From an uncultured virus (IMG/VR IMGVR_UViG_3300038443_001324) (taxonomy: Duplodnaviria > Heunggongvirae > Uroviricota > Caudoviricetes): DNA of 64,000 nucleotides. A model generated the notes under the pieces. The model searched no databases. It was not told the origin of the DNA and saw only the letters and a program-made list of their open reading frames with translations. Below are positions 2,744 to 16,554 of the stretch, in pieces. Location: the IMG/VR virus record IMGVR_UViG_3300038443_001324; one strand, 5' to 3'. Position numbers and translations under genes: made by a program. Position 1 is the stretch's first letter, and each line of letters starts with the position of its first letter.

Positions 2744-3280
2744 TTACGCTGCCTGCCGCAGCTCACACAGCACGTTCACGAGCTCGTCGGCCTTGGCGAA
2801 GAGCGCCTCGAGCGTGTCGTCGTTCACGAGGTTGCGATCGAATGGCAGATCGCGCTGCGAGCGGCCCTCGGAGATCGAGGGGCGATCGATGCGGATCACC
2901 ACGGCGCCGAGCTCGCGCGCCTTGACGATCTCGTTGGCGAACCGGATATCGTCGGTAACGATGCGATCGCCCGCCACCTCGCGAACGAAGCGCGGATACT
3001 GGTTGGCCCAGACGTCCGAGTGCACGCTGCGGCGCCCCCAATCGTAGCCAAGCGCGCTTTTCAACGCGGTAGGCGTGAGGCCGCCGAAATCCTTGAGCGG
3101 CGCGTTTTTGGCGTCTCCTTCGAAATCCTCGTCTCCCAGCGCAAAGCCGGCCTCGAGCATTCGGTGCACGGGTTCCATCATGCGCACGCGCGCGAAACCG
3201 TGCTTTTCGATCAGGTGCTTGGCGATGGCGATCTTGCCCGACGCCGGCTCGCCCGTGAGCGCAATAATCAGCTTTTGCAT
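2744..3280 (-). CDS. Deoxynucleoside monophosphate kinase-like protein
   Basis: IALTGEPASGK P-loop, LG.DWGR, IVTDDIRFANE. Confidence 0.75.
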   Translation of the reverse strand: MQKLIIALTGEPASGKIAIAKHLIEKHGFARVRMMEPVHRMLEAGFALGDEDFEGDAKNAPLKDFGGLTPTALKSALGYDWGRRSVHSDVWANQYPRFVREVAGDRIVTDDIRFANEIVKARELGAVVIRIDRPSISEGRSQRDLPFDRNLVNDDTLEALFAKADELVNVLCELRQAA

Positions 3281-3805: not shown

Positions 3806-4276
3806 TTACGCGGCTGCTCGCTTCATGGCCGCGAGAACGCGCTTGATGGCCACTGCCAGCGCGTTCGGATCCAGGCGCCAGCTCTGTTCGAAGCCGAGCA
3901 TCGCGCCCACTGCCTCGCTGCAAAATTCCTCGTTCGGCTTGTGATGGATGAAACCGCACACGAAGTGGGCGTCGCCCCAGCTGTCGTATTTATCACCGTC
4001 GTGCTGGTTGAACCATGCGATCGCCGCGGCCTCGTCGAACACGTCGCCGAGCTCGAGCACGTCCCACTGCGTGGCATCGCCAAAGTTGATCGAGCCGGCG
4101 GCGGCCGCGCGCACACCGCCATCCAGAAACGTCGACGAAAGCGATCGGCCATCGGATAGCACCAGCTCGACGTGCGCATACTCCCCCGCCATCCACTCAT
4201 GCACGCCGATATCGAACAGGGCCGAGAGGCCTGGCTTGGTCCCTTTGAAAAACGCTGCTTTCATTGCAAACCTCAA
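3806..4276 (-). CDS. Permuted papain-like (NlpC/P60 superfamily) protein
   Basis: His precedes Cys: YAHVELV ... KYD ... FCSEAV. Confidence 0.6.
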   Translation of the reverse strand: MRFAMKAAFFKGTKPGLSALFDIGVHEWMAGEYAHVELVLSDGRSLSSTFLDGGVRAAAAGSINFGDATQWDVLELGDVFDEAAAIAWFNQHDGDKYDSWGDAHFVCGFIHHKPNEEFCSEAVGAMLGFEQSWRLDPNALAVAIKRVLAAMKRAAA

Positions 4277-4812
4277 TCGAGCGTCGCGGCCACCTGGTTG
4301 ATGCTCGCGACGATGCTGTTGTAGGTAGCCTGCGCTGTCGGTGCGTCAGGCGCGTTGATCACCTCGTATTTGCGCATCCGAAGGGCGCCGAGCTGCTCGA
4401 GCGCGTTTTGAAGGTTTGATGCTTGGGCAAGGATGGTGTCGGCCGCGTCCTGGTAGCCCTTAGCCGCCGACGCCGCATAGGACGTGATCCACACGCCCGG
4501 GTCGCCCTGGTAGCCCGCGGTCTTGAACGCCTGCGCGGCAGCCAGGCGCGCCTCGTACTCGGCCTGGAAGCGGGTCCACTGTGAATAAATGTTGGCCACG
4601 AGGGCGTCGATCTCCGCGGCGAGCTGGTTCTGCGTCGGCGGTGGCTTCGCCGGAGCGCTGGACGGGGGCGTTGGCGTATTGCCGGCCTCAACCCACGCCA
4701 AATAGTCGGCCGAGAAAGGGTCGTTTGGAGAGCCGGAAATCAAGGCGCCGTCCGATCGGATAACGGCGATCGAGCCAGCGCGAACGAGCTGATAGGTGTA
4801 TGCAGTCGTCAT
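4273..4812 (-). CDS. Tail fibre-associated/assembly protein
   Basis: IRSDGA.I...P...DYLAWVEAGNTP motif; directly downstream of the tail fibre. Confidence 0.55.
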   Translation of the reverse strand: MTTAYTYQLVRAGSIAVIRSDGALISGSPNDPFSADYLAWVEAGNTPTPPSSAPAKPPPTQNQLAAEIDALVANIYSQWTRFQAEYEARLAAAQAFKTAGYQGDPGVWITSYAASAAKGYQDAADTILAQASNLQNALEQLGALRMRKYEVINAPDAPTAQATYNSIVASINQVAATLD

Positions 4813-6854
4813 TGCGTCATCCCGTGCGCGGCGAGCAGCGCCTCAAGTTGTTTAACGCGTGTGCTCAACTCTTTGATGGCTGCAAGCGCAAGCACTGGCA
4901 GTCGATCGTATTGCACGCCGAGATAGCCGTTGCGCTCGGTTACGATCTCGGGACGCACTTTTTTGACGTCCCCCGCGATCACCGCAAGCTGCACCGGCGA
5001 ATCATTGGGCAGCCCCAAAGCCTCGGCATGATCGTCGTCGATCTTCCAGGTGTGCAGCACCGTTCGGATTGACTCGACGGCTTCAAGCGCGTTGGGGACG
5101 TCACCGCGAATATTTTTGAGCTTCTCGTCGGAATTGGCCGTCCATGCAGTCGCGCCCCAAGCCATATACATACCTATGTTGCTCGAGTTATAGACGACCA
5201 GATTGTTGGCGCTGTCTGGGCCAATCTCCCAAAAATTACCCGACGCCGAGTTGCTTAAATGAAGAGGAACCACAGGGGAGGTAAGTGTCACTGGCCCGTA
5301 CGGAGAAGCGACATTGAAGCCGCTCGTGCTACCAAATATATAGGCCGAGCCTGTGCTGCCGAAGTAAAGAACGCCTTCGGCATTGTTTCCAGAATATCCC
5401 TGCGTCCACAGCGAGCCGTTACCACATACCAGATTGCCGGTTGAAGTCACGGTACCGCTGTCGCTGACCGAAAAATTCCATGCAGTACCGGCCTGGTTGA
5501 TCGATCCCCACATGCCCGACGGGTCCGATTGAAGGATCGGCCTATAAGTTGTAGTCCCGTTAGAACTAGTCAGGACAACGGTGCCCGCTACAGTGAGAGT
5601 CCCCGATACTGTCCCGCCCGCCGAAGGCAGATAATTCGCCGGGTTGAAGTTGGTGCTATCCCACGGCGTCGCGGCACCGAACACTGGCCGATAGCCAAAT
5701 GTAACTTGACCATTCGACCGGTTGATCGAGAGCGCGCTATCGATCGAGTTACCCGAATCATCATAGCGGCTTATAAAAAAATTGGAACCTGCATTATTGC
5801 CAGATTCAGCAGCGCTGTCGGCGCCTATAAGCCAGCGCGTATATCCACCTGTGTCGAATTCGACTTGACGCTGCTGCCCTGCATTGGCATTCAGATATAA
5901 AACAGCGGGCGCTGCGCCTGTGTGCACTTGCACATTACCTGTGAATAAAGCTCCGGCGAGCGGCGCATAGTTCGCCGGGTTGAAGTTGTTCGAATCCCAG
6001 GGTGTATAGCCCTGCCACGTGGGTCGCTTGGCAAGCGAAATGCCGCTGATGCCGCCGGCCTGGCCACCTGTCACCATCAGCCAATTGGCCGCGGTGCTGT
6101 AATTGTCGGCCACGAACCGCCCATAGAGCGCTCCACCGCCGAACATGAAGTCTGCTATCCGGTTATTTGCGGTGCGCGTGCTGTCCGTGAGCTGCAGGAA
6201 CGCGCCTGATCCCGACGCCCACGCCGAGACGTTTGTCGCGCTCACACCAGCGCCAGAACCGCCCTTGCTCGACATGTTGCCGGTGAAGGTCGCCCCGGCG
6301 AGCAGCGCGTAATTGCTAGGCGTGAAATTGCCGCTATCCCATGGCGTGTTTCCATTGAAGGTCGGCCGCTGCGCAAACGCGGCGACGTCCGTATCGTAGA
6401 ACGTGACGGGCATCGTACTCGTCGAAAAATCGCCGGAGGCCGCGGTATTGCGAAAAAGCGACATCGCGACGCCGATCGAACGCCACTGGAAGATGCCCTC
6501 GCCGTTGGGCTCCGACGTGTCCCAAAAGGTAATAGACGGCTGGCTTGCCTTTAGGCTCAGATTCCCGGTGAACGTGCCGCCGGCAAAGGACATATATTGG
6601 GCCGCCACGTCCTGCGCGAAGATCGGCGTCTTGTTGAGATCGCACACGAGCTGCCAGGTTGTAAACGGCGTGATCGTCGTGAGCTGATAGAGCTTCAGTA
6701 AATCGTAGCGGTAACAGAACATACCGACGATCAGATTGGTCGTCGGGAAGGCGGTGCCGCTCGAGTTCGACTGCGTGGTTTGGTCGTTATTGAGCAGCAG
6801 CTCGAGCGACGAGGCGATCGTCTGCGTGTCCGGGATAGCGGTGTAGCTTTGCAT
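4809..6854 (-). CDS. Tail fibre with C-terminal intramolecular chaperone (peptidase S74-type)
   Basis: Three RP.F/W.G.TPWDS.NF.P.NY repeats; C-terminal SDEKLKNI ... GVQYDRL.VLALAAIKEL. Confidence 0.85.
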   Translation of the reverse strand: MQSYTAIPDTQTIASSLELLLNNDQTTQSNSSGTAFPTTNLIVGMFCYRYDLLKLYQLTTITPFTTWQLVCDLNKTPIFAQDVAAQYMSFAGGTFTGNLSLKASQPSITFWDTSEPNGEGIFQWRSIGVAMSLFRNTAASGDFSTSTMPVTFYDTDVAAFAQRPTFNGNTPWDSGNFTPSNYALLAGATFTGNMSSKGGSGAGVSATNVSAWASGSGAFLQLTDSTRTANNRIADFMFGGGALYGRFVADNYSTAANWLMVTGGQAGGISGISLAKRPTWQGYTPWDSNNFNPANYAPLAGALFTGNVQVHTGAAPAVLYLNANAGQQRQVEFDTGGYTRWLIGADSAAESGNNAGSNFFISRYDDSGNSIDSALSINRSNGQVTFGYRPVFGAATPWDSTNFNPANYLPSAGGTVSGTLTVAGTVVLTSSNGTTTYRPILQSDPSGMWGSINQAGTAWNFSVSDSGTVTSTGNLVCGNGSLWTQGYSGNNAEGVLYFGSTGSAYIFGSTSGFNVASPYGPVTLTSPVVPLHLSNSASGNFWEIGPDSANNLVVYNSSNIGMYMAWGATAWTANSDEKLKNIRGDVPNALEAVESIRTVLHTWKIDDDHAEALGLPNDSPVQLAVIAGDVKKVRPEIVTERNGYLGVQYDRLPVLALAAIKELSTRVKQLEALLAAHGMTQ

Positions 6855-6863
6855 GAGGGCCCC

Positions 6864-7067
6864 TTACGCGATCGCGACGCCGGCGCGCGCGAGCTGCGCA
6901 TGGGCATCGTCCAGTTGAGATTGCAGCAGGGCATTCGCGCGTGCGGCCGCGGCGAGCTCGATCTGCATTTGTGCGGCACTGGCTTCGGCCGCCGCAGCCG
7001 CATTCAGGGCCTCGGTACGCTGCGCCTGCAGCGCGCGCAGCATCGTCTCGTGCTTCGGATCAGTCAT
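6864..7067 (-). CDS. Small coiled-coil protein
   Basis: 67 aa, Ala/Gln-rich; 4-nt overlap with the radical SAM gene. Confidence 0.6.
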   Translation of the reverse strand: MTDPKHETMLRALQAQRTEALNAAAAAEASAAQMQIELAAAARANALLQSQLDDAHAQLARAGVAIA

Positions 7068-8413
7068 TTTTGAACAGCGATAGGAATGATCTGGCGGCCG
7101 GCGCGAAGGGTGCCAGCCTGGGGGGCGAAGACGTTTTGTCGATGCTCGGGCAGCTCGCCCGTCATCGGCTCGATGCGCTGCAGCTCGCAGCCGGTCATTT
7201 CCTTGATCGCAACCGCGAACAGGGCCACGTTATCGCTGTAGGCGCTCTCGCACGTGGCGTCCCATAGGTCGCCCTCGAGGAACATGCACGAGCCCTTGCA
7301 CAGCTGCAGCACCGGGCAGCTCGAGCAGCGCGAGCGCGTCGACCAGTGCCGCGCAGTGTTTAGACGGATAGATGATATCGCGTCGATATCGCCTATATGG
7401 TGACTTTCGCCATTGGGCGCGATCGCAGAGGTGCTCACGTTCTGACAGGTGAGTACCTCTCCGCGTAGCGTAACGGTGAGCGAATCGTCGGCGTCCGCGC
7501 CGCACTTCTGGCCAAGCGAGCGGGCCGGGCGTGCATAGCGGATCGAGTCGATAAGCCCCACGATCTTCTGTGTCACGTTCGCGAAATTAAGCGCGCGGCC
7601 GCCACTCAATTCCTCATAGGCGCGCCGGCGATAGGCGCCATGTTCTTCGGCCGACTGCAGCGCCATCGACATGCCGCCATGATCGTAGCTATCGATAAAG
7701 CCGCCTTCGCCGATCGGCACGCTCTCGTCGCCTGTGAGCTCAACGAAATAGGCCTGTACCGCGGCGCGAGATTGGTTGCCCCGGTGCATCATCGCGTTGA
7801 ACGAGATCCGGTCGAGCTTGCGTAACTGCCGATACAGCAGCAACGCCGCGTCTTTGGCCATGCTCTTTGCGCCGGCGAATGGATCGGGCCCGCGCACCGC
7901 TTGCCCCGGCCCGTCGTGCGAGATCGCCACGCGGAAGCGGTTTTGCACGAGCCACATGCCGACCATCGGGTTAAGCAGCGAGCCGTTGGTGATGATCGAG
8001 AAGTCGGCGTATGGATGGCGCAGCCGCAACTGCTCAACAAGCGGCTGCAGCGTTTTCATGTAGACGAGCGGCTCGCCGCCCCAAAACTCAATGCGCGCGT
8101 CGTCGGCGATATTTAGCGTTTTCAGGCTCGCGATGAAATCGACCACCGACGAGGGGCCCGTCTGATCGGCGTGCGGCACGAAGCGCTGCGAGCAATACTC
8201 ACAGCTGTAATTGCACGAAAGCCCGAGCTGTATCTTGAGTTTTCGCACCTCGTTGCTCTTGCGGCCCGTCCAGGCGTACGACTCATATTCGCGTCGCTCG
8301 ACGGGCAGCACCGGTCGCCCGAGCGCGTCGGTGAGCGTGCTGGCCTGATTGTTGTAGAGGAACTGGCGAGCGCGGCCGCACTGATCGACGGTGTGCAATA
8401 CGAACCCGGTCAT
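7064..8413 (-). CDS. Radical SAM enzyme with SPASM domain
   Basis: CNYSCEYC (CxxxCxxC), FWGGEPL, ITNGSLL, ISHDGP; C-terminal KCG...TCQ...CSSCPVLQLCKGSC...C. Confidence 0.9.
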   Translation of the reverse strand: MTGFVLHTVDQCGRARQFLYNNQASTLTDALGRPVLPVERREYESYAWTGRKSNEVRKLKIQLGLSCNYSCEYCSQRFVPHADQTGPSSVVDFIASLKTLNIADDARIEFWGGEPLVYMKTLQPLVEQLRLRHPYADFSIITNGSLLNPMVGMWLVQNRFRVAISHDGPGQAVRGPDPFAGAKSMAKDAALLLYRQLRKLDRISFNAMMHRGNQSRAAVQAYFVELTGDESVPIGEGGFIDSYDHGGMSMALQSAEEHGAYRRRAYEELSGGRALNFANVTQKIVGLIDSIRYARPARSLGQKCGADADDSLTVTLRGEVLTCQNVSTSAIAPNGESHHIGDIDAISSIRLNTARHWSTRSRCSSCPVLQLCKGSCMFLEGDLWDATCESAYSDNVALFAVAIKEMTGCELQRIEPMTGELPEHRQNVFAPQAGTLRAGRQIIPIAVQK

Positions 8414-9168
8414 TTGCGCGCCACCTTCAGATAAGCCGCCTGCAGGGCGCGCAGCGCATTCTTGAAGCGCCCCACCTTGCCGATCGCGACGTCGGGCGCC
8501 GTGAGCGTAAGCGCGGATCCTTGCGCCATTTCCTCAGCGAACCCGGCCGCCCACGAAGGCACTTTCACGCCGTTCATCATCGAGATCACGATCGTCGTGA
8601 GCAGATCGAGCTGCAGCTCAAGCGCGGCCAGCGAATCGTTGGTCTTCACCTCTTTGAGCAGCTTGTGCTTGGCCCATTGGCGTTGCAGAAACGGCTCGAT
8701 CGAGGGCATCAGGCGCTTGAGCACCATATCGCCCGATTCGGGCACCGTGTCCACCATCGGCGAGGCATTGCCCGGCTCGATCGTGTGGCAGAAAAAGATC
8801 GCCGCGAAATCGGCGTGATCGGGCGAGATCCCGACAAGCACGATCGGCATAAAGGCGTCGATGCCCTTGCGCACCATGATCGCGGACCAGCTGTCGCGGC
8901 TCTCGTTAAGCTCGCTGGCCCACACGGGCATCCACGCGCCGCTACGCGCCCGCACGAGGTAGAGCACGTCCGGGCCATACTGCACGCGGCTAAGGTCAAA
9001 TTCCCAATCGAGCGCGATTTCCGCGCACTTCATCGTAAAGCCGCGCGCGGTGGCCTCCACGGTTACGACTTGGGCCGCGTTGCCTAGATTGTTCGGGTCA
9101 AGCAGTGATCGATGCACGAGCACGGTCTGCACTCCATTGGAACGAGGGGTAATCGAAGTCGAAGCCAT
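8410..9168 (-). CDS. Hypothetical protein between the Hint tail fibre and the radical SAM gene
   Basis: 252-aa ORF overlapping both neighbours (4 nt and 71 nt). Confidence 0.7.
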   Translation of the reverse strand: MASTSITPRSNGVQTVLVHRSLLDPNNLGNAAQVVTVEATARGFTMKCAEIALDWEFDLSRVQYGPDVLYLVRARSGAWMPVWASELNESRDSWSAIMVRKGIDAFMPIVLVGISPDHADFAAIFFCHTIEPGNASPMVDTVPESGDMVLKRLMPSIEPFLQRQWAKHKLLKEVKTNDSLAALELQLDLLTTIVISMMNGVKVPSWAAGFAEEMAQGSALTLTAPDVAIGKVGRFKNALRALQAAYLKVARK

Positions 9169-10663
9169 TGGCGCCGCCGCTCATGACATAGCCCGCGGCG
9201 ATGATGAGGTGGCAGCCGCCAACGATCGGCAGATAGACGCGGGTATCGCGGGCATACCGGTCGGTTACGTCGACGACCTTTTGGCGCACCCAGCCGCCCA
9301 TGAAATGCGCGAATTCATCGCGCTCGTCGTCGAGCTCGAGCACCGCATCGTTATCGGGAAGGCCTCGCACGACGCCGAGCTCAACGCCGCGCATGAAGCT
9401 CGAGCGATCGACAACCGCCAGGCCCTCGCGGCCTTCCCGGCGCGTCCAGAAAGCGTGATCGTCGGTCCATCGCAGGAACGGATCGTCGGCGAAGCCGAGC
9501 ATTCGGCGATCGCCAAGCTCGGGCGTTTCCACCTCGAGCACCGGCATCGGCCCGAGCGGCGTGAGCACCATGTCGCCAGGGCGGATATGCTCAACCGGCA
9601 GCCACGTGCGGCCATCGGCCAACAGGATTGGCGTGCCGGCCGGGAAACACGTGCAGTTGCAATTGCAATTGCAATTGGTCATCGTTTTGACGAGCTGCAC
9701 CTGCTGCCCGGAGATATTCAAGTAGAACCCGGCCGGCGTCGCTATGTCGCCGGCTAACGCCACCGTCCCGGCTGCATTGAGGTAATAGGCCGAAGCAGAC
9801 AGAAAGCGGCTCTCGAGAAAGCCGTAAGCGCTTGTCCAGATCCGGCCGTCGCTTTGGAGAATGTGCCAGTCGGTGGCCAGCTGCTTGCTGCCATACACGC
9901 GCACCGTCGAGCCTTCGTACATATAAATGCCGCCGCCGTACGTGGTGCTATACCAGCCCGTCGAGCCGTTGCTGCGATACCAGCCGTTGTTATAAATGTC
10001 GTAGGCTGTATCGCCGCTCTTGCCGAGCAGCCCCGAAATAGGAAGGTTCGCGGTCCCCGCGGCGGTTATGTGCCCATAGGCGTCAATCGTGATCACGGGA
10101 ATAGCCGCGCTGCCGCCGAAGGTGCCGGCGACAACGCCCGAGGTGTTGTGCCCGACCGATTGGCCCGAGCCCAGCGTGCCCGTGGCGGTGAGCGGGCCGC
10201 CAGAGATCGCGAGCTTTTTGGCGTCGACATATTGCTTGGTAGTGGGGTGCAGCGCTTGCGTGGGGTCGCCCGATAGAAGGAGCGGCCCGAGCATCGCATC
10301 CCCGGCCTTCTTCAGCGCCAGCGCATCACCCGCGTCGACGTACTGCTTCGGGGTGGCCTGCAAGGGCTGCGTCGGATTACCGGCAAGCATGAGCGGCCCG
10401 AGCATCGTGTCGCCGTTCTTGTTGAACAAGCCCACATTCAAATCGGCGATCAGGGTCCACGTGGTTTGCTGCGCGGTGGCGATGCTGCATTGGTACAGCT
10501 GATTCAGGTCAGTGCGATAGCAAAATTGCCCTTGCACCACGTTCGTCGCCGGGAAGGCGGTACCGGAAAAATTCGATTTGACCGTTTCAGTTCTATCGAC
10601 AATATCCTGCCGGCTCTGCGCGAGTTTGTCGCCGCCGTTTATCTGATTCCATGTCTGCGACAT
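9098..10663 (-). CDS. Tail fibre with (NC)4 motif and C-terminal Hint domain
   Basis: N-terminus homologous to the 4809-6854 fibre; two GD.MLGPL.L.G.PTQ.L..T.KQYVDA repeats; NCNCNCNCT followed by CFPAGTPILLADG; TDDH block B. Confidence 0.85.
   Translation of the reverse strand: MSQTWNQINGGDKLAQSRQDIVDRTETVKSNFSGTAFPATNVVQGQFCYRTDLNQLYQCSIATAQQTTWTLIADLNVGLFNKNGDTMLGPLMLAGNPTQPLQATPKQYVDAGDALALKKAGDAMLGPLLLSGDPTQALHPTTKQYVDAKKLAISGGPLTATGTLGSGQSVGHNTSGVVAGTFGGSAAIPVITIDAYGHITAAGTANLPISGLLGKSGDTAYDIYNNGWYRSNGSTGWYSTTYGGGIYMYEGSTVRVYGSKQLATDWHILQSDGRIWTSAYGFLESRFLSASAYYLNAAGTVALAGDIATPAGFYLNISGQQVQLVKTMTNCNCNCNCTCFPAGTPILLADGRTWLPVEHIRPGDMVLTPLGPMPVLEVETPELGDRRMLGFADDPFLRWTDDHAFWTRREGREGLAVVDRSSFMRGVELGVVRGLPDNDAVLELDDERDEFAHFMGGWVRQKVVDVTDRYARDTRVYLPIVGGCHLIIAAGYVMSGGANGFDFDYPSFQWSADRARASITA
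9653..9676 (-). repeat. 6-nt tandem repeat encoding (Asn-Cys)4
   Basis: Minus strand AAT TGC AAT TGC AAT TGC AAC TGC. Confidence 0.9.
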
Positions 10664-10671
10664 TTACTCTC

Positions 10672-11868
10672 CTAGTAGCCGCTGGCCTTCCACGAGACAA
10701 CCCCCTCGACTGATTGCGAGGTGTTGGCCATGGACAGGCAATTCACGTAAAAGCCGGTTTCGTCGATTTCCGAAATGTCGGGGTAGGCGAGCTGCGTGCC
10801 GCCCACTACCTGCGCCACCACGTCGGGCACTACGTTGAACTTGCGTGCGAACAGCACGCGCTGGCCGCCGGCGGGGATATCGATCGAGCCACTATCGAAC
10901 TGGTCGGGCACGTCGACCTCGAGCACGGCCTGCGAGATCGAGATCGTGTCGGTCGAACTGCGCTGCGAGATCAAGCGCATCCATACGATCGCGTCTTGGT
11001 ACAGGTAGTCGCCGGCGATGAGCTGCTTAAACGGCGCATAGCCGGTCGGCGAATGGGAGTTGACGAAGTTAGCGAAGTCGGTGAGCGTGAGCGGAGTCTG
11101 GCTTACCTCGAGATCTCCCACCACGCCGCCGGCGTTGCGCAGATAGCGATCGCGCGTGTTCCAGAGCTCGGCCAGTTGCTGCGCATAGCTCACCACTTCC
11201 GCGTCCGTGGTTTGCCATGCCTCGGCGATCGCGCGCACCCATTGCATGGTGAGCGCCGCACCTTCTGCGGTGGCCCACGCTTCCTGAACGATTTGCAGCG
11301 CCGTACGGGCGCCCGTCTCGCCGGTCGTAACGCTCTCGAGCGCCGCCGGCGCGATAAGCCGCGGCGCGCCCTCGATCGTGGCCCACGCCTCGGCGATCGA
11401 GCGCAGGTACACCGAGAGCGTGGCCATCGCGTCGGCCATGGTGAAGCCTTCCTCGAAATTTCCCTGCGCGATGCGCCCAGCGCGCGCCTCGAGCGTTTGA
11501 ACGGCCTCGGCGAATGCGCCTTGCGAGAACGCATTAGCGTAGCCTTCGGCCGTCGCAAAGCTCTCGGTCGCGCCATGCACCCAGCTCATGAGATCGAACA
11601 GGGTTTCCGCTGTCGCCCACGATTCAACGGCGAGCGGGGCGATCACACCGGCGCGCAACTCGGCCGAGGTGAAGCCTTCGGCGAACGGCCCTTGCGCGAT
11701 CGCGTTGCCCTCGAGCTCGCCCGTAGAGAACCCCTCGTCGGCCTCGCACGTGATGGCCTGCTCAAAGTAGCCGCTCCACGGCTTGCCCGCGTCCGCGTCG
11801 GACCACGTGCCGGGCGCGTTGGCCCAGGTATAGTCGAGCTGATCGGTGATCGTCGTTGTGACGCCCAT
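10672..11868 (-). CDS. Minor tail protein with ~18-19-aa repeats
   Basis: About 11 E-x-F/W/V-x-T-x-E/D repeats; located in the tail tip module. Confidence 0.65.
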   Translation of the reverse strand: MGVTTTITDQLDYTWANAPGTWSDADAGKPWSGYFEQAITCEADEGFSTGELEGNAIAQGPFAEGFTSAELRAGVIAPLAVESWATAETLFDLMSWVHGATESFATAEGYANAFSQGAFAEAVQTLEARAGRIAQGNFEEGFTMADAMATLSVYLRSIAEAWATIEGAPRLIAPAALESVTTGETGARTALQIVQEAWATAEGAALTMQWVRAIAEAWQTTDAEVVSYAQQLAELWNTRDRYLRNAGGVVGDLEVSQTPLTLTDFANFVNSHSPTGYAPFKQLIAGDYLYQDAIVWMRLISQRSSTDTISISQAVLEVDVPDQFDSGSIDIPAGGQRVLFARKFNVVPDVVAQVVGGTQLAYPDISEIDETGFYVNCLSMANTSQSVEGVVSWKASGY

Positions 11869-11882
11869 CGCCGCCGCCCCGC

Positions 11883-12404
11883 TTACGACATGGTGAAGTT
11901 AAAGGTCTGCGTAAGCGTGTCGTTAGCGCCCTTGTTGATGACGGCGAACACGACGCGATCGTAGAGCGTTCCGGCCGCCGCGGCATTGAGCACGCCCGCC
12001 TCAGTGATGGCAGCCGTAGCCACCCCGGGGTTGAAGGTCGTCGAGAACGAAAAAACCTGCGTGTTGGCCGTATGGGCATAATCGGCTGCCTGCCGCGCGG
12101 TTTCGGCCAGGAGCGCCGTTTGCCCCGCGGCCGCGGCCGTGGTGCCGGTGCCCACGGCGATATAACCCATGCAGGCCGGGCGCGCGGCCGAATTGCCGAT
12201 CGCATCAGCCATGAAGTCGAAGCCGCCGGCGACTATGATGTTGTCCTTCGCGTGCACGAAGATATCGCCATTGCCTTTCTTGAGAATCGCCCGCATCGAG
12301 CCTTTGACCTTGACCGGCTCGGCGTGGCCAAGCAGGGCGCGATCGAGCATACGCAGGTATTCCGCCAACTCAGCGTCGCCGCTGATCTTCACAATCTTTT
12401 CCAT
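11883..12404 (-). CDS. Minor tail/baseplate protein
   Basis: Likely start MEKIVK; motifs YIAVGTG and ITEAGVLNA are typical of tail structural proteins. Confidence 0.65.
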   Translation of the reverse strand: MEKIVKISGDAELAEYLRMLDRALLGHAEPVKVKGSMRAILKKGNGDIFVHAKDNIIVAGGFDFMADAIGNSAARPACMGYIAVGTGTTAAAAGQTALLAETARQAADYAHTANTQVFSFSTTFNPGVATAAITEAGVLNAAAAGTLYDRVVFAVINKGANDTLTQTFNFTMS

Positions 12405-12414
12405 TCGGGCTCCG

Positions 12415-15400
12415 TCAGGCGTGCAACGCCAATGTCGAGAACGTGCCGGCCGGTGCGAAATTGCCCTGCGCGTACACGGGAGTCGGATAACGCCGCGTCG
12501 CGCCATAGAGCGCGCGCTGCGTGCTTGATTGCGAAATGGCAAATACGAGGTTGTCGCCTTGCTCGAGCGGCACAGAGATATCCAAGCGCTGCCCAGCCTG
12601 ATCGACGAGCGCAAAGGTGCCCGTGATTCGGTCGAAGAACAGCAATAGGAAATCCGCAGGGCCGGTGAGTCGCACGAGCGCGGCGTCGTCGCTCGCATTC
12701 ACCTGATCAGGACTGAAGTCGAAAGTGAGGCTGAAGATAGCGGGCACGTCCACGGCCCACGAAACGCGGGTCGTATCGGTAACGTCTAGCCCTTCGCTAA
12801 ACCAGCCAGGCCCGTACGTGACGCCCACCTGTTCCGCGGGCTGCGTGCCTTTGAGGCCGACAAGCGAATTACTCAGACGCCATCCCTCGACGTCGCTTGC
12901 ATCGAGGGTTCCGGTCGAGGTTGAGATGTACGCGGCCACCTGCGCACCATCAGCGTCCCCGAGAATACCTTGCCACGTGGGGGAGTCCGGCGCATCCCAC
13001 GCGAAGTCTGCATTGTCCCACGTGAGGCCGTCCTGCGTTACCGAATTTGCTACCAGCGTCATCCAGTTGCGCGCGTAGAACGCATTGGAGAGGCTGATTT
13101 CCTCGTAGTAATCGCCGGCCGGCCGGTTGCCGCCGTTGGCATCCTTCGCGATTTCGGCAAACTCGCCGTCCACCGTGAGATCGAGCTTGATGCCCGGAAA
13201 GCCCGCCCCCACGAAGTCGCGGGTGTACACCATATTGCGGCTGGGCAACGGCTGCGCGAGGATTGTCGCATACCGGGCATCGATCGAATACAAGCCGGCG
13301 GGCGAGAGCGACTTGATCCAAAACGTAACGTTGCCCGAGCTGCTCACGGGCCACTTGACCGTCGCCGTGTCGCCGGCAAAGCGCCCGACCACCTGGCCAA
13401 GCGCCCACGCACTGCCGCACCGGATTTCGTACTCGAAGCCGGCGTCGGCTATCTTCGTCCACTTGAACATGAACGAATCTTGTTGCGGGTACGCATCGAA
13501 GTAGGGCACATCGTCGGGCGCGATCGCCTGCACGCTCACCACTTGAGCATTGCGGCTCTCGTTGCCCAGCACGTCCACGGCTTTGATCATCACCGTGTGC
13601 ACATTCGCATCATCGAACTGCAGAAAGAACGAGGTGCCCTTCATCACCGCCGATAGAACGGTGCCCTCGGCCCAGCTATCACCCTCTTTGAGCGTGTAGC
13701 CGGCAAGGTCGATATCGGGGTTCTGATTCCACGACAGCTGCGCGCCAAGCGAGGTCGAAACGCCGCCGAACCCGGTCACATCATTGGGGGGCGATGTTTT
13801 GCCGACCACCTGGTAGCCGGTCACCTCAACCCAATCCGAGGTGGTGCCATTGGCCGATACCGCGCGCACGCGGATATCGTAGAGCTGCAGCTCGATCACC
13901 GGCGAGATATAGCAATTCGGGTCGCCGATAGTCGTTTCGGGCGCATCTGTCCACCGAGCGCCTCCCGAGAGGCGGTATTGCGTTTCATAGCCCACCGCCG
14001 GCACAAAGCCGCCGCTTTGCGGCTGCATCGTAATGAGAATGCGATCCTGCAGGGTGCCGTCCGAGAGCCGCATGATCACGGTTTCGTCCGACCGGATGGT
14101 AGCGATTGCCGGCGTCGCCGGAGGCTGCTGCCGAATCGGCGTCTGTACCGTTATGTAGTCATCAAACGAGGGGATCGAGAGCGAGTCGGCCGTCCAAATG
14201 CCCGGCTGCGCATCGAGCATCGTGATCGTGGCGGTAAGGTTCGAGCTCGGTGTGATCGCCTTAATGATCATCGGGGCGCTCTCGCGCTCCGACTCCCCGA
14301 ACATATACAGATCGTCAGTATCCGGTGCGATGCCCGATCCGCTTTCGATCGGGTTGGCTAGCGAAACGATAGCCGACACGCCCACCGTGCTCACGAGTGA
14401 AAACGTGTTGCTCGAGCCGTCCGCGAGCCGCACGCGCATCGCGTAGGAATGGCCGCCATCCATTTGTACCGGCCCGTCGAGCTCGTAACCGGTGATGTTG
14501 CCGCCGGCATCATAGATCGGGCGCTTGATCTTGCCCGCGGCCAAGCCTATCGATACAACGTCATACGAAAACCGTACGAGGTCGCCGAGCGTGCAGCGCA
14601 GGTGCTCGATATCCATCGTAACGGTGTGCGTTTCGGGGCGCAGCTTGGCCGCGGCGAGGAAATAGCGCCCCTCGCGCCAGCACTGCGCCGAGCGCGTAAT
14701 GCCGTCGAAACTAAGCGTTTCGTAAATGGTGGCGTTCGACTGATCGTAGCCATCATCGAATACGAGGATCTCGTCGTCGGCGTAATCCTTTTCTTCGTTT
14801 TGAAACGAGATCCGAAGCGCGTGCGGCAGATCCGCGAAGAGCTTCGCGCCTTGATAGCCCGACGAGTTCGCGGGCGTGATGTGCTGCACCGGCACCGTCT
14901 GCGGCAGATCCACGAAGATAGAGTACTTGCCGTCGCGCATCGTGAAGCTCGCGCGACACGAGTTCGAGATCTGCTGCAGCGCTGCAAAGATCGAGCCGCC
15001 TTGTAGCACCGCATTGTATTGCCAGCGCGGCTTTCCGGGGTCGTTCACGGCCACCGCGTCGCAGGCCTGCGCCCACGCAAGTAGCGCCGGGTGATCAATC
15101 CGCTGCGGCGAGATCTGCGGGTCATCGAGGGCGCGGTAAAGTAGCACGAGCAGATAGGCCCATGCAGGATTTTGCGACAGCTGCCAGCTATATTGCCCGA
15201 TCGCGTAACTCGAATCCCATACCGGCAGGTAAGAGGTGGCGACGCAGTTGATCGTGTCAGGCGTGCCGTTTAGCTGCGCGGTGGCCTTGATGCGCACGGC
15301 GATGAGCGCGACGCCCTTTTGCACCACGGGCGCCTGGTACTTGATGCTGCGCAGCGCGGTCCAATAGATCGTGTCGGCATCGTGCGAGGGGTCGCGCATG

Positions 15401-16554
15401 GCCACGTTGCGGCGAACGCGCACCTCCCACTGCCCGGCCTGGGGGAAAATCACGTGCCCCGAGCGGATCGCCGTCGACGTAGTTTGATCGGTGATTTCGA
15501 TTGTTCCAGGCGTGCCAAGGCCATCGTCAGCGCTGTTCACCCAATTGGGCGTGATCCAATTGGGTGTCCCCACGAGCCGATACTGCACATCGGCGCCCAC
15601 GCTTTGCTGAGACTGCGAGCCGTCATCGTTGAAGTGTGCCAAGCCGCGCAGGCACGAGACGTCGATCGAGGCCTCGCTCGTGTTGTCATCGGTATAACGC
15701 GAGATCCAATCGGCGTCGGGATCAGCCGACCGATTCATCTGCACCTGAAAGTCTTGCTCGTGGATATCGGTCGTGTAGAGCGTCGTGGGCTGATCGGTGA
15801 GCCAGCCTTCGCGCGTTTCCACCTGAACGCCCGCAAACACGCCGATCGGGGTGTCCCCAATGCGGATATCGGAAATGTTGAGCGGGCCATAACCTACGCA
15901 CAGCAGCAGCCGAATGTACTGATCGTCGCCCTGGTTTTCCGAGTAGGGGTGAGCGGCCAGCATCGGATAGATGCGGCGCTTGCCCAGCACGCGCGGAATG
16001 TAGGCGTAGGGCTGCAGCGAGTTGCTGGCGCCATTGAGTGTATAGCGCGACGAGCCGGCGCCGTTGACGTCGCTCTTCGGGGGCGGAAATAGAGCGTTGA
16101 CGATCATCGCCCCGACAAGCGATATGCCCGCCGCGATTACCGCGCCCGCTACGCCGGCCCCGATGCCGCCGCCTTGGATGCCCAGCGCCGCGATACCGTT
16201 CGCCGCATAATACTGCTGCGCCACGATCGCCACGATGGCCACAACTACCATCAAGATCGCGGCGAGCGGGTTTTTGTGGCCGCCGCCGCCGCCCTGCGGT
16301 ACAGCGCGCAGGTACACCGTCTTGCCCCTGCGTGCGCGCACGGTTGCCCATAGGCGCCGCGGCACCTCGCGGTCCTCGATGAACACGCGCAGATACGGCA
16401 GGAACTTCTCGGGTACGTTCGCACGATCGACGATCTGCTGCATCGTGAGACCTTCCTGCGCCTCGAGGTGCTGAAACGCCGAGGCGAACGGGTTGGCCTG
16501 CATCACAACAGCCGTTACCGGCTTGAGCGCCGGCAGGATTTGGACGTCGCTCAT
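12415..16554 (-). CDS. Tail tip/host-specificity protein (TipJ-like) with gpI-like N-terminus and FnIII-like domains
   Basis: VPQGGGGG, IPRVLG.RRIYP, NPAW, YDIRVRAVS, PPNDVTGF; 1379 aa downstream of NlpC. Confidence 0.85.
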   Translation of the reverse strand: MSDVQILPALKPVTAVVMQANPFASAFQHLEAQEGLTMQQIVDRANVPEKFLPYLRVFIEDREVPRRLWATVRARRGKTVYLRAVPQGGGGGHKNPLAAILMVVVAIVAIVAQQYYAANGIAALGIQGGGIGAGVAGAVIAAGISLVGAMIVNALFPPPKSDVNGAGSSRYTLNGASNSLQPYAYIPRVLGKRRIYPMLAAHPYSENQGDDQYIRLLLCVGYGPLNISDIRIGDTPIGVFAGVQVETREGWLTDQPTTLYTTDIHEQDFQVQMNRSADPDADWISRYTDDNTSEASIDVSCLRGLAHFNDDGSQSQQSVGADVQYRLVGTPNWITPNWVNSADDGLGTPGTIEITDQTTSTAIRSGHVIFPQAGQWEVRVRRNVAMRDPSHDADTIYWTALRSIKYQAPVVQKGVALIAVRIKATAQLNGTPDTINCVATSYLPVWDSSYAIGQYSWQLSQNPAWAYLLVLLYRALDDPQISPQRIDHPALLAWAQACDAVAVNDPGKPRWQYNAVLQGGSIFAALQQISNSCRASFTMRDGKYSIFVDLPQTVPVQHITPANSSGYQGAKLFADLPHALRISFQNEEKDYADDEILVFDDGYDQSNATIYETLSFDGITRSAQCWREGRYFLAAAKLRPETHTVTMDIEHLRCTLGDLVRFSYDVVSIGLAAGKIKRPIYDAGGNITGYELDGPVQMDGGHSYAMRVRLADGSSNTFSLVSTVGVSAIVSLANPIESGSGIAPDTDDLYMFGESERESAPMIIKAITPSSNLTATITMLDAQPGIWTADSLSIPSFDDYITVQTPIRQQPPATPAIATIRSDETVIMRLSDGTLQDRILITMQPQSGGFVPAVGYETQYRLSGGARWTDAPETTIGDPNCYISPVIELQLYDIRVRAVSANGTTSDWVEVTGYQVVGKTSPPNDVTGFGGVSTSLGAQLSWNQNPDIDLAGYTLKEGDSWAEGTVLSAVMKGTSFFLQFDDANVHTVMIKAVDVLGNESRNAQVVSVQAIAPDDVPYFDAYPQQDSFMFKWTKIADAGFEYEIRCGSAWALGQVVGRFAGDTATVKWPVSSSGNVTFWIKSLSPAGLYSIDARYATILAQPLPSRNMVYTRDFVGAGFPGIKLDLTVDGEFAEIAKDANGGNRPAGDYYEEISLSNAFYARNWMTLVANSVTQDGLTWDNADFAWDAPDSPTWQGILGDADGAQVAAYISTSTGTLDASDVEGWRLSNSLVGLKGTQPAEQVGVTYGPGWFSEGLDVTDTTRVSWAVDVPAIFSLTFDFSPDQVNASDDAALVRLTGPADFLLLFFDRITGTFALVDQAGQRLDISVPLEQGDNLVFAISQSSTQRALYGATRRYPTPVYAQGNFAPAGTFSTLALHA

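Follow-up and report, generated by a model that had tools for sequence, protein, structure and literature searches.

The radical S-adenosylmethionine (SAM) enzyme encoded in the tail-fibre module of an uncultured tailed virus (Caudoviricetes; IMG/VR record IMGVR_UViG_3300038443_001324) accompanies Asn-Cys ladders on fibre proteins in nearly every related phage. The whole stretch of DNA that was analysed, 64,000 nucleotides, is referred to as the window. The ladder of the window lies on the second of two tail fibres (fibre 2), directly before a Hint (bacterial intein-like) autoprocessing domain, and the enzyme carries a SPASM domain. Taken as a whole, the gene string is, in our judgement, fairly probably a phage tail-fibre maturation cassette in which a Hint-released ladder is modified by the SPASM enzyme. 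An earlier note, made from the sequence alone, had predicted a ladder fibre, a Hint domain, a 252-amino-acid protein, the radical SAM enzyme and a coiled-coil gene; all are on the minus strand, each located where it had been placed.

Fibre 2 is a predicted tail-fibre precursor of 521 amino acids (positions 9098..10663, minus strand) that matches phrog_16641 ('tail fiber protein', E 2.4e-11) and consists of an N-terminal anchor, a shaft/tip region, the Asn-Cys ladder and the Hint domain. The stretch before the Hint domain reads ...TNCNCNCNCT, followed by CFPAGT. The junction is ...QLVKTMT-NCNCNCNC-T|CFPAGT..., with NCNCNCNC (amino acids 330-337) at nucleotides 9676-9653 and Cys339 starting CFPAGT at nucleotide 9649. 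Together with Thr338, the ladder spans 9650..9676 (minus strand) and would form the new C-terminus upon Hint cleavage. The ladder peptide ...NCNCNCNCT contains four Cys. When all 615 stop-to-stop segments of at least 60 amino acids in the window were scanned, the ladder pattern matched once, in fibre 2. Among 50,697 phage records, the fibre 2 tip region matched only the Achromobacter phages JWF and 2-1, and a search with the fibre N-terminal anchor gave no useful relatives.

The first 74 amino acids of fibres 1 and 2 are 45% identical (E 3e-15), so the two fibres would share the same N-terminal tail anchor. With the N-terminus as anchor, the C-terminal ladder would be the distal, host-facing end; general fibre architecture likewise suggests that the C-termini of both fibres are distal. 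No credible candidate for a separate Cys-rich precursor ORF (open reading frame) was found within 6500-11000, and the claim of the earlier note that there is no separate short precursor held. A stand-alone small precursor peptide was rejected, as the short Cys-rich frames in this region are all out-of-frame overlaps of long genes. The candidate substrate is thus a 338-amino-acid structural fibre with an N-terminal anchor, and not the short leader/core precursor with a released peptide that strictly defines a ribosomally made, post-translationally modified peptide (RiPP).

Linkage of the enzyme to the ladder

Two sets of loci were collected by homology to the enzyme. In the viral set, 459 IMG/VR stretches encode a relative of the radical SAM enzyme; 80 loci were kept, 64 of which have at least 2500 nucleotides upstream. 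The bacterial set holds one genome per species. It contains 112 stretches with a relative, of which 80 were kept and 53 have at least 3500 nucleotides upstream. These bacterial loci are mostly from freshwater and soil Burkholderiales (Limnohabitans, Polynucleobacter, Burkholderia, Paraburkholderia, Polaromonas and Rhodoferax).

A fibre that carries an (Asn/Asp-Cys)n ladder is encoded on the same strand in 58/64 viral and 49/53 bacterial-genome loci. In the viral loci, the ORF ends in the ladder, with at most 6 amino acids after it, in 49/64 cases (for example, ...YNCNCDCNCC* and ...NFNCNCNCNCDCYC*), and the ladder is followed by a Hint domain in 9/64. The ladder is terminal in 44/53 bacterial loci and lies more than 6 amino acids from the stop in 5/53; two of these five continue into a Hint domain and in three the ladder ends 8-35 amino acids before the stop. 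The 16 viral loci with less than 2500 nucleotides upstream show no ladder. When loci are counted per enzyme cluster, a ladder is found in 54/58 clusters at 90% identity and in 19/20 clusters at 70% identity. At 70% identity the sole miss is L155, where a small ORF directly upstream contains NC runs resembling a ladder. In the control segments, the ladder pattern occurs in 0/3318 and 4/3484 on the minus strand and in 0/1151 downstream on the plus strand.

The same gene string is present in two cultured phages. JWF and 2-1 both encode gpJ, a small protein, a Hint fibre, a 240-amino-acid protein, a radical SAM enzyme and a coiled-coil gene, in this order. Their fibres read ...NCNCDCNCNCS|CFPAGT and ...NCNCDCNCS|CFPAGT, respectively.

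Other arrangements were also observed. Ralstonia phage RSP15 (L002, 5377-6249; a myovirus that is annotated as Ackermannviridae) encodes a radical SAM enzyme that is 47% identical and a 'side tail fiber fragment' ending in ...SNTNCQCGN, a minimal two-Cys ladder. A gene of the c4 type (an accessory family described below) and one gene of no family lie between the fragment and the enzyme. In L015, L033 and L068, the ladder is on a separate ORF of 106-134 amino acids that follows a fibre ORF with a coiled-coil end (...LRKEIDLLKGH), which would suit a tip made as a subunit of its own. In L155 and L159, from Paraburkholderia and Polynucleobacter genomes, an NC-rich ORF of 139-156 amino acids (...NCNCACTYNC...YNCDCNCDCNCNCG) lies 31-498 nucleotides upstream of the radical SAM start. 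Each of these two loci has a radical SAM enzyme of 42-45% identity, and its small ORF resembles a stand-alone precursor more than it does a fibre.

Linkage of the ladder to the enzyme

The reverse search used a degenerate DNA pattern for NCNCNC[ND]C in IMG/VR and returned at least 120 stretches, of which 80 loci with flanks were analysed. A radical SAM match was counted when the enzyme-homolog profile matched at E<=1e-5. Where the ladder lies at the end of an ORF (at most 13 amino acids to the stop) and at least 3000 nucleotides follow downstream, a same-strand radical SAM gene is present in 43 of 43 loci. The single Hint-capped ladder also has one. Internal matches that are neither terminal nor followed by a Hint domain, with the same downstream length, have none (0 of 5). 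With less than 3000 nucleotides downstream, a same-strand match is found for 4 of 8 terminal ladders and 2 of 4 internal matches. When the pattern is out of frame or in no ORF of at least 50 amino acids, a match on either strand is found in 1 of 19 loci.

The gene-neighbourhood check proposed in the earlier note, for linkage of the enzyme to Cys-rich fibres, therefore gave near-universal linkage in both directions. The fibre ladder is very likely the substrate of the radical SAM enzyme, as judged by these neighbourhoods, and the near-obligate linkage suggests that phages of this kind probably alter their host-binding fibre tips chemically.

Some ladder-linked enzymes score just 45-140 bits against the profile. 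More than one SPASM lineage therefore seems to go with ladders. Five loci from the ladder-pattern search (L167, L174, L178, L186 and L242) contain ladders such as ...CNCNCNCDCSDDSGGG and ...ACNCNCNCNCTRGIL together with two to four radical SAM-like ORFs (45-240 bits), and the enzymes of these loci are predicted to be further lineages tied to ladders.

Composition of the ladder and the Asn-Cys pair

Ladder statistics were taken from 68 unique tails of the enzyme-found loci; the parser missed tails of the window type (...ACT|C). The (XC)n run has 3-7 repeats, with a mode of 4. At the first X position all 68 tails have Asn. The second position has Asn in 61, Asp in 5 and Ala in 2 tails, the third Asn in 47, Asp in 14 and Ala in 7, and the fourth Asn in 33, Asp in 18, Ala in 11, Gln in 2 and Gly in 1. 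Across all 319 X positions there are 221 Asn, 49 Asp and 24 Ala. An alignment of 23 fibre tails has five invariant columns (N52, C53, C55, C57 and C59).

The preference for Asn extends beyond the ladder. Within 150 amino acids before the ladder, in 98 unique fibres (L004-L163), 96% of the 278 fibre-tip Cys outside ladders directly follow Asn (for example, ...GNTGNCSPV...SNCGSA...). At position -3, Asn occurs before 11% of these Cys, matching a background of 10.5%. The 2631 Cys in 756 other proteins from these loci are most often preceded by S, A, L, T, G or R; Asn falls outside these top six. The conserved unit would therefore be the adjacent Asn-Cys pair rather than an NxxC spacing, which fits a chemistry or a structure that uses neighbouring residues. 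Coupling of neighbours by such enzymes has a precedent in TqqB, which links adjacent Thr and Gln (PMC9389541). In the window lineage, the fibre tip has 0-1 extra Cys, so the ladder would be the whole target there.

The composition also bears on another explanation, in which the ladder is a metal- or Fe-S-binding motif on the trimer axis and the radical SAM enzyme is needed indirectly or modifies another part of the tail. T4-type fibres contain His-x-His iron sites that are comparable to such a ladder. The X-C-X-C alternation sets all Cys on one face of a strand, the Cys are invariant and X is variable, and many tails end in extra Cys (CC, CGC or CGCC). A metal-binding role was also proposed for the Cys-rich protein CrpA by its authors (PMC13692751). 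This explanation leaves unaccounted for both the two-way linkage to a radical SAM/SPASM enzyme (43/43 versus 0/5) and the Asn before 96% of the isolated fibre-tip Cys, and we consider it quite unlikely. Binding and modification could coexist.

The Hint domain

The Hint domain of fibre 2 covers amino acids 339-521 (9101..9649, minus strand), with Cys339 as Cys1 and T400-D-D-H403 as the TxxH block. The single sequence gives a weak Pfam match (Hint_2, E 0.004). Aligned Hint regions from two lineages, nine in all, keep C1, F2, P3, T6, T62 and H65 (TxxH). The domain residues C1, T62 and H65 correspond to C339, T400 and H403 and are invariant in 9/9 sequences. The nine-sequence profile matches the intein-type chain 8w20_A (E 5e-7) and PI-SceI, and Pfam Hom_end_hint is matched by 8/9 members, with a best E of 2.5e-7.

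The AlphaFold2 (AF2) model of fibre 2 is confident only over amino acids 339-500, where the predicted local distance difference test (pLDDT) is 75-91. For the fibre shaft it stays under 50, as would be expected when one chain of a trimer is modelled alone. The model of amino acids 339-500 matches the bacterial intein-like (BIL) domain BIL2 (6tmm) with Z 17.0 and a root-mean-square deviation of 2.7 Å over 149 residues in VIA. It also matches the Clostridium thermocellum BIL domain 2lwy (Z 14.1) and hedgehog 1at0 (Z 13.0). All 28 chains at Z>=8 are inteins, BIL, Vint or hedgehog Hint domains. Foldseek gave 22 matches at E<=0.001, the best at 3.3e-7. Cys1, TxxH, the profile matches and the fold thus bear out the Hint domain that had been called on fibre 2.

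A C-terminal His-Asn with a following nucleophile was not found in the fibre 2 Hint domain, and splicing is therefore not expected. The motifs would allow N-terminal cleavage, and the domain is very probably self-cleaving. The ladder stands directly before Cys1 in 18/18 database homologs of the Hint region, mostly as NCNCNCAC-T|CFPAGT, and the -1 residue is kept as Thr, Ser or Cys. Several lineages carry ladders capped by a Hint domain (L004-L011, L066/L154, L240, L260 and L271); the junction of L066/L154 is ...NCDCNCNCGTC|CFPLDT. An alignment of tails with and without a Hint domain places their ladders in shared columns, and the proteins that lack the domain end at that point. Because the Hint-less relatives end in the same ladder, Hint cleavage would expose an identical free tail. 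The simplest reading is that cleavage would restore the free ladder end with which the fibres of most lineages are made from the start. This comparison supports the earlier proposal, in which a C-terminal ladder becomes exposed when the Hint domain cleaves.

Hedgehog-type Hint domains transfer the acyl group to a nucleophile. The Hint thioester of fibre 2 could likewise ligate the fibre C-terminus to another nucleophile (a chain, a tail protein or a small molecule), with the radical SAM enzyme acting later or independently. This would agree with the fold match to 1at0 and with the Thr, Ser or Cys at -1. However, plain cleavage already gives the Hint-less state. Since the ladder is free without a Hint domain in 49/64 viral and 44/53 bacterial loci, ligation would not be the core function, and we regard it as very improbable. 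Self-cleavage remains the preferred reading.

The fibre 2 domain resembles known BIL/Hint domains in Cys1, TxxH and the fold of 6tmm and 2lwy. It differs from them in forming the end of a phage tail-fibre protein, with a ladder always preceding it. The Peptidase_S74 chaperone of tail fibres and endosialidases is also a self-cleaving C-terminal domain that is removed and leaves a mature tip. Unlike the Hint domain, it has an unrelated fold and mechanism and no coupling to a modifying enzyme. The window contains both types: the two fibres of this one phage have the same anchor and different self-cleaving ends (Peptidase_S74 for fibre 1, Hint for fibre 2), and the ladder is on the Hint fibre only.

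The radical SAM/SPASM enzyme

The enzyme has 449 amino acids (7064..8413, minus strand) and matches phrog_1802 (E 1.1e-56). Its CxxxCxxC site for the radical SAM [4Fe-4S] cluster (C67x3C71x2C74; 8192..8215, minus strand) is invariant in 15 aligned homologs with 48-68% identity. The SPASM seven-Cys motif, CX9-15GX4C ... CX2CX5CX3C ... C, binds two auxiliary clusters. In the window enzyme, the motif is complete (C304...G318x4C323, C363x2C366x5C372x3C376 and C388; 7250..7504, minus strand) and all seven Cys are invariant in the same homologs. Given the three and seven invariant Cys, one SAM cluster and two auxiliary [4Fe-4S] clusters are predicted. TIGR04085 (SPASM) matches amino acids 304-378 with 32 bits, above its cut-off of 27. 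Fer4_12 reaches 22.4 bits (cut-off 22), and Pfam Radical_SAM is under its cut-off, at 24.2 bits versus 29.5. The description of the gene as a radical SAM enzyme with a SPASM Cys array was therefore correct.

The best NCBIfam matches are peptide and protein maturases: PapB (5.4e-17), QhpD (1.9e-15), geopeptide, CcpM and others. No NxxcB model is present among 25 of the 44 matched NCBIfam families. The nearest solved sequences are 8vpo (4.6e-16), CteB 5wgg (5.5e-11) and the anaerobic sulfatase-maturating enzyme, anSME (6.5e-10). Alignments to 8vpo and 5wgg begin at chain residues 86-87, leaving the N-terminal domains of these chains unmatched. The alignment to 5wgg spans amino acids 53-380 of the enzyme and includes the SPASM domain. 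By catalytic-site proximity profiling (PMC10288494), position 1 alone was mapped confidently, as Ser75 versus Phe112, which gives no call between sacti- and ranthi-type chemistry. A predicted complex of the enzyme with the 60-amino-acid fibre tail, three 4Fe-4S clusters and SAM scored 0.01, where the mark is 0.32; this uncontrolled prediction counts neither way as to binding. The enzyme family is large, with 3022 proteins at E<=1e-10 among 8000 candidates scored.

Proposed maturation of the fibre tip

The following scheme is our inference as to the cleavage, the ladder as substrate, the thioether chemistry, which of cleavage and modification comes first, and what the 252-amino-acid protein does. 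Fibre 2 would be made as a 521-amino-acid precursor and would trimerise. At Thr338-Cys339, the Hint domain would perform an N-to-S acyl shift; resolution of the thioester would release a 338-amino-acid fibre that ends in ...TNCNCNCNCT with its ladder distal and host-facing. The SPASM enzyme would act on the ladder, perhaps after this step; most likely, it would abstract H from an Asn/Asp carbon and couple that carbon to a Cys thiol held by an auxiliary cluster. The 252-amino-acid protein would assist as a substrate adaptor or chaperone. Non-reducible thioether bridges would result and would stiffen the tip or lock it. For a Cys-to-Asn/Asp thioether as the product, we see the chances as about even. 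A fuller version is doubtful and offered tentatively: phages may apply the chemistry of peptide antibiotics to their own virion, every Cys may be stapled to the preceding Asn or across the trimer chains to give a thioether ladder at the end that binds the receptor, the Hint domain may be a self-removing cap or follower that presents the tail to the enzyme, and 2-oxoglutarate (2OG) oxygenases may tailor the product further in many lineages.

The maturase neighbours PapB, QhpD and CteB, found in NCBIfam and the PDB, were counted for the thioether reading. SPASM enzymes install thioethers on whole proteins, as QhpD does on QhpC and CrpC on CrpA (PMC13692751). In these two pairs, as in the phage, a SPASM enzyme is encoded beside a Cys-rich protein and makes a RiPP-like change on a protein; they differ in that both substrates belong to cells (one is a subunit of an enzyme, the other an archaeal protein without a known role), and the word 'phage' is absent from the source (PMC13692751). 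PapB, with its substrate PapA, and CteB, with its SCIFF peptide, resemble the phage enzyme as the best NCBIfam match and by the SPASM alignment, respectively, and they make several Cys thioethers in Cys-rich repeats. The phage substrate differs in being a leaderless structural protein, and the phage enzyme has no detected RiPP recognition element (RRE) and has Ser75 in place of Phe112.

The NxxcB/NxxcA pair also has a SPASM-type enzyme, which links the thiol of Cys to the Asn beta-carbon and also accepts Ala, Gln and Asp, residues that also occur at X in the ladder (PMC9389541). This match of acceptors is suggestive only. The NxxcA substrate is a short leader-bearing peptide from a quorum-regulated streptococcal operon (PMC9389541), whereas the candidate substrate here is a 338-amino-acid virion protein. 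The NxxcB motif is Asn-x-x-Cys and the phage unit is an adjacent Asn-Cys; the ladder contains NxxC by construction.

Several points weigh against this scheme. Both cleavage and modification are predictions from sequence. The folded trimeric fibre may be a poor substrate for a peptide-acting enzyme, and an alternating Cys ladder on the trimer axis could be a metal site. The strict ladder pattern failed in 6/64 viral and 4/53 bacterial loci. Two of the viral failures are variants (L015, ...TNCACACEC*; L032, ...ACNCAGGACDCG*). In another three (L039, L046 and L065), the fetched DNA begins at the gene usually found next after the fibre, which leaves the fibre itself outside it. L024 and the bacterial loci L091, L151, L156 and L157 have no ladder by pattern and are unexplained. 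The enzyme itself is far below the curated cut-offs of its matched families: PapB (NF047865) reaches 62 bits versus 340, QhpD (TIGR03906) 56.5 versus 453, anSME (TIGR03942) 35 versus 349.45 and TIGR04463 (CrpC-type) 29.6 versus 525. Its closest solved relative, 8vpo, is listed as a cyclopropyl synthase, which makes a C-C bond and not a thioether (PMC10878394), and the residue after CxxxCxxC is Ser75 here and Phe112 in the thioether synthase CteB (PMC10288494). An RRE-like domain was not detected in general family and PDB sequence searches; about 60 amino acids precede the core. With the enzyme far below these cut-offs and 8vpo making a C-C bond, sequence leaves the chemistry unfixed.

A different chemistry is to be weighed, in which the enzyme oxidises Cys like anSME (to formylglycine or a thioaldehyde), epimerises or forms C-C couplings, giving reactive or unusual tip residues. 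In sequence, anSME and CteB are equally close (E 6.5e-10 versus 5.5e-11), the C-C-forming 8vpo is the nearest solved relative, and the JWF homolog was first annotated as 'anaerobic sulfatase-maturating enzyme'. 2OG-oxygenase-like genes are found in most Hint-less cassettes, so oxidative tailoring would be part of the theme. On the other side, the anSME equivalog reaches only 35 bits versus 349. Sulfatase-type substrates have the motif C/S-x-P/A-x-R, which is absent from the fibre tail. The limitation of X to Asn, Asp and Ala suits an acceptor role better than a Cys-only chemistry. We judge this alternative unlikely and keep Cys-to-Asn/Asp coupling as the working product.

Accessory genes and locus context

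The 252-amino-acid protein (family c9; 8410..9168, minus strand) matches no known family, with no match in Pfam, NCBIfam or PHROG. Its database copy P0121 (240 amino acids) is 99% identical, with 95% query coverage; translation may really start at a GTG at 9132, which would give the 240 amino acids of P0121. Family c9 has 14 homologs in the protein database and lies directly upstream of the radical SAM gene in 19/83 loci (L001-L083). The AF2 model (pLDDT 82) has a beta domain (amino acids 15-125) and a helical bundle (amino acids 146-250). No structural neighbour was convincing: the best Foldseek match has E 0.065, and the best in VIA has Z 6.2 and covers the helical half only. A search of the ESM Atlas gave no usable match. 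The c9 alignment has no invariant His or Cys column, although C127 is nearly so. A non-catalytic adaptor or chaperone for the substrate is a guess.

Accessory genes were counted in the 62 viral loci with at least 3500 nucleotides upstream. Family c4 (about 285 amino acids, no family) lies between the fibre and the enzyme in 36/62 loci. Family c2 (about 205 amino acids, one to three genes) is present in 34/62 and has invariant R, H and H; one of three members scanned passes 2OG-FeII_Oxy_5 (27.7 bits, cut-off 27). Family c16 is present in 7/62 and passes 2OG-FeII_Oxy_3 (29.4 bits, cut-off 27). Most Hint-less cassettes hold a 2OG-oxygenase-like c2 or c16 gene and c4 between the fibre and the radical SAM gene (for example, L026:5382-6008 and L022:3903-5785), and the window lineage has neither. 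Profile comparisons of c9 to c4 and c2, the accessory families found most often in other lineages, gave probabilities of 0.2% and 0.15%, and c9 is by these profiles unrelated to both. It co-occurs with c2 in L015 and L028.

The coiled-coil gene of 67 amino acids (6864..7067, minus strand) overlaps the radical SAM stop by ATGA, and the same type of start/stop overlap is found at the junction of the 252-amino-acid and radical SAM genes. It was found by tblastn in 2/83 loci and has a blastp cluster of 7 members, confined to the close lineage of the window. Other lineages have different genes downstream of the enzyme. Membership of the 67-amino-acid gene is unproven and it is not counted in the system.

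The window is most of a siphovirus-type genome with a uniform G+C content (0.59-0.67) and a tape-measure-like gene of 1220 amino acids. The genes of interest are all on the minus strand, in the order gpJ, c6-type, 398-amino-acid, fibre 2, 252-amino-acid, radical SAM, 67-amino-acid, fibre 1 and assembly protein. The gpJ-like central tail fibre or tip attachment protein (12415..16554) matches Pfam FNIII-A_GpJ with 69 bits. The conserved tail-module protein c6 (about 150 amino acids; 11883..12404) lies inside a 271-amino-acid ORF (11883-12698), of which amino acids 127-271 are 58-62% identical to c6 proteins from 8 loci. Directly upstream of fibre 2 is the 398-amino-acid conserved tail-module protein c5 (10672..11868), whose homologs are upstream of the ladder fibre in 45/83 loci. 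Fibre 1 (681 amino acids; 4809..6854) has a C-terminal Peptidase_S74 chaperone domain and no ladder, and is an internal contrast to fibre 2. The tail-fibre assembly protein (4273..4812) matches phrog_8258. Just beyond the fibre module, also on the minus strand, are a 156-amino-acid protein (3806-4276; phrog_1128, 'enoyl-CoA hydratase/carnithine racemase-like', E 2e-20) and a deoxynucleoside monophosphate kinase (2744-3280; phrog_139, E 6e-29).

Novelty and significance

A full-text literature search returned no radical SAM enzyme connected with a phage fibre; the original genome paper of JWF lay outside this search. In the phage papers citing JWF, the words 'radical' and 'Hint' are absent. The earlier note knew of no characterised system of this kind, and the literature search likewise gave no such description. 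Within the literature searched, enzymatic post-translational cross-linking of a virion receptor-binding protein is not described. SPASM maturation of a Cys-rich substrate is already known, and the new part would be a virion fibre substrate with a self-cleaving cap.

The cassette is widespread, with 3022 enzyme homologs, 459 viral contigs and 112 bacterial one-per-species loci. Because it is present in the cultured phages JWF and 2-1, it is directly testable. If the proposed reading is true, the Asn-Cys ladder with its built-in self-cleaving cap would be a possible stapling tag for protein engineering. For RiPP enzymology, the enzymes would be a large protein-modifying SPASM family with a very simple repeated motif. 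For phage biology, it would be a new principle by which fibre tips are built or tuned.

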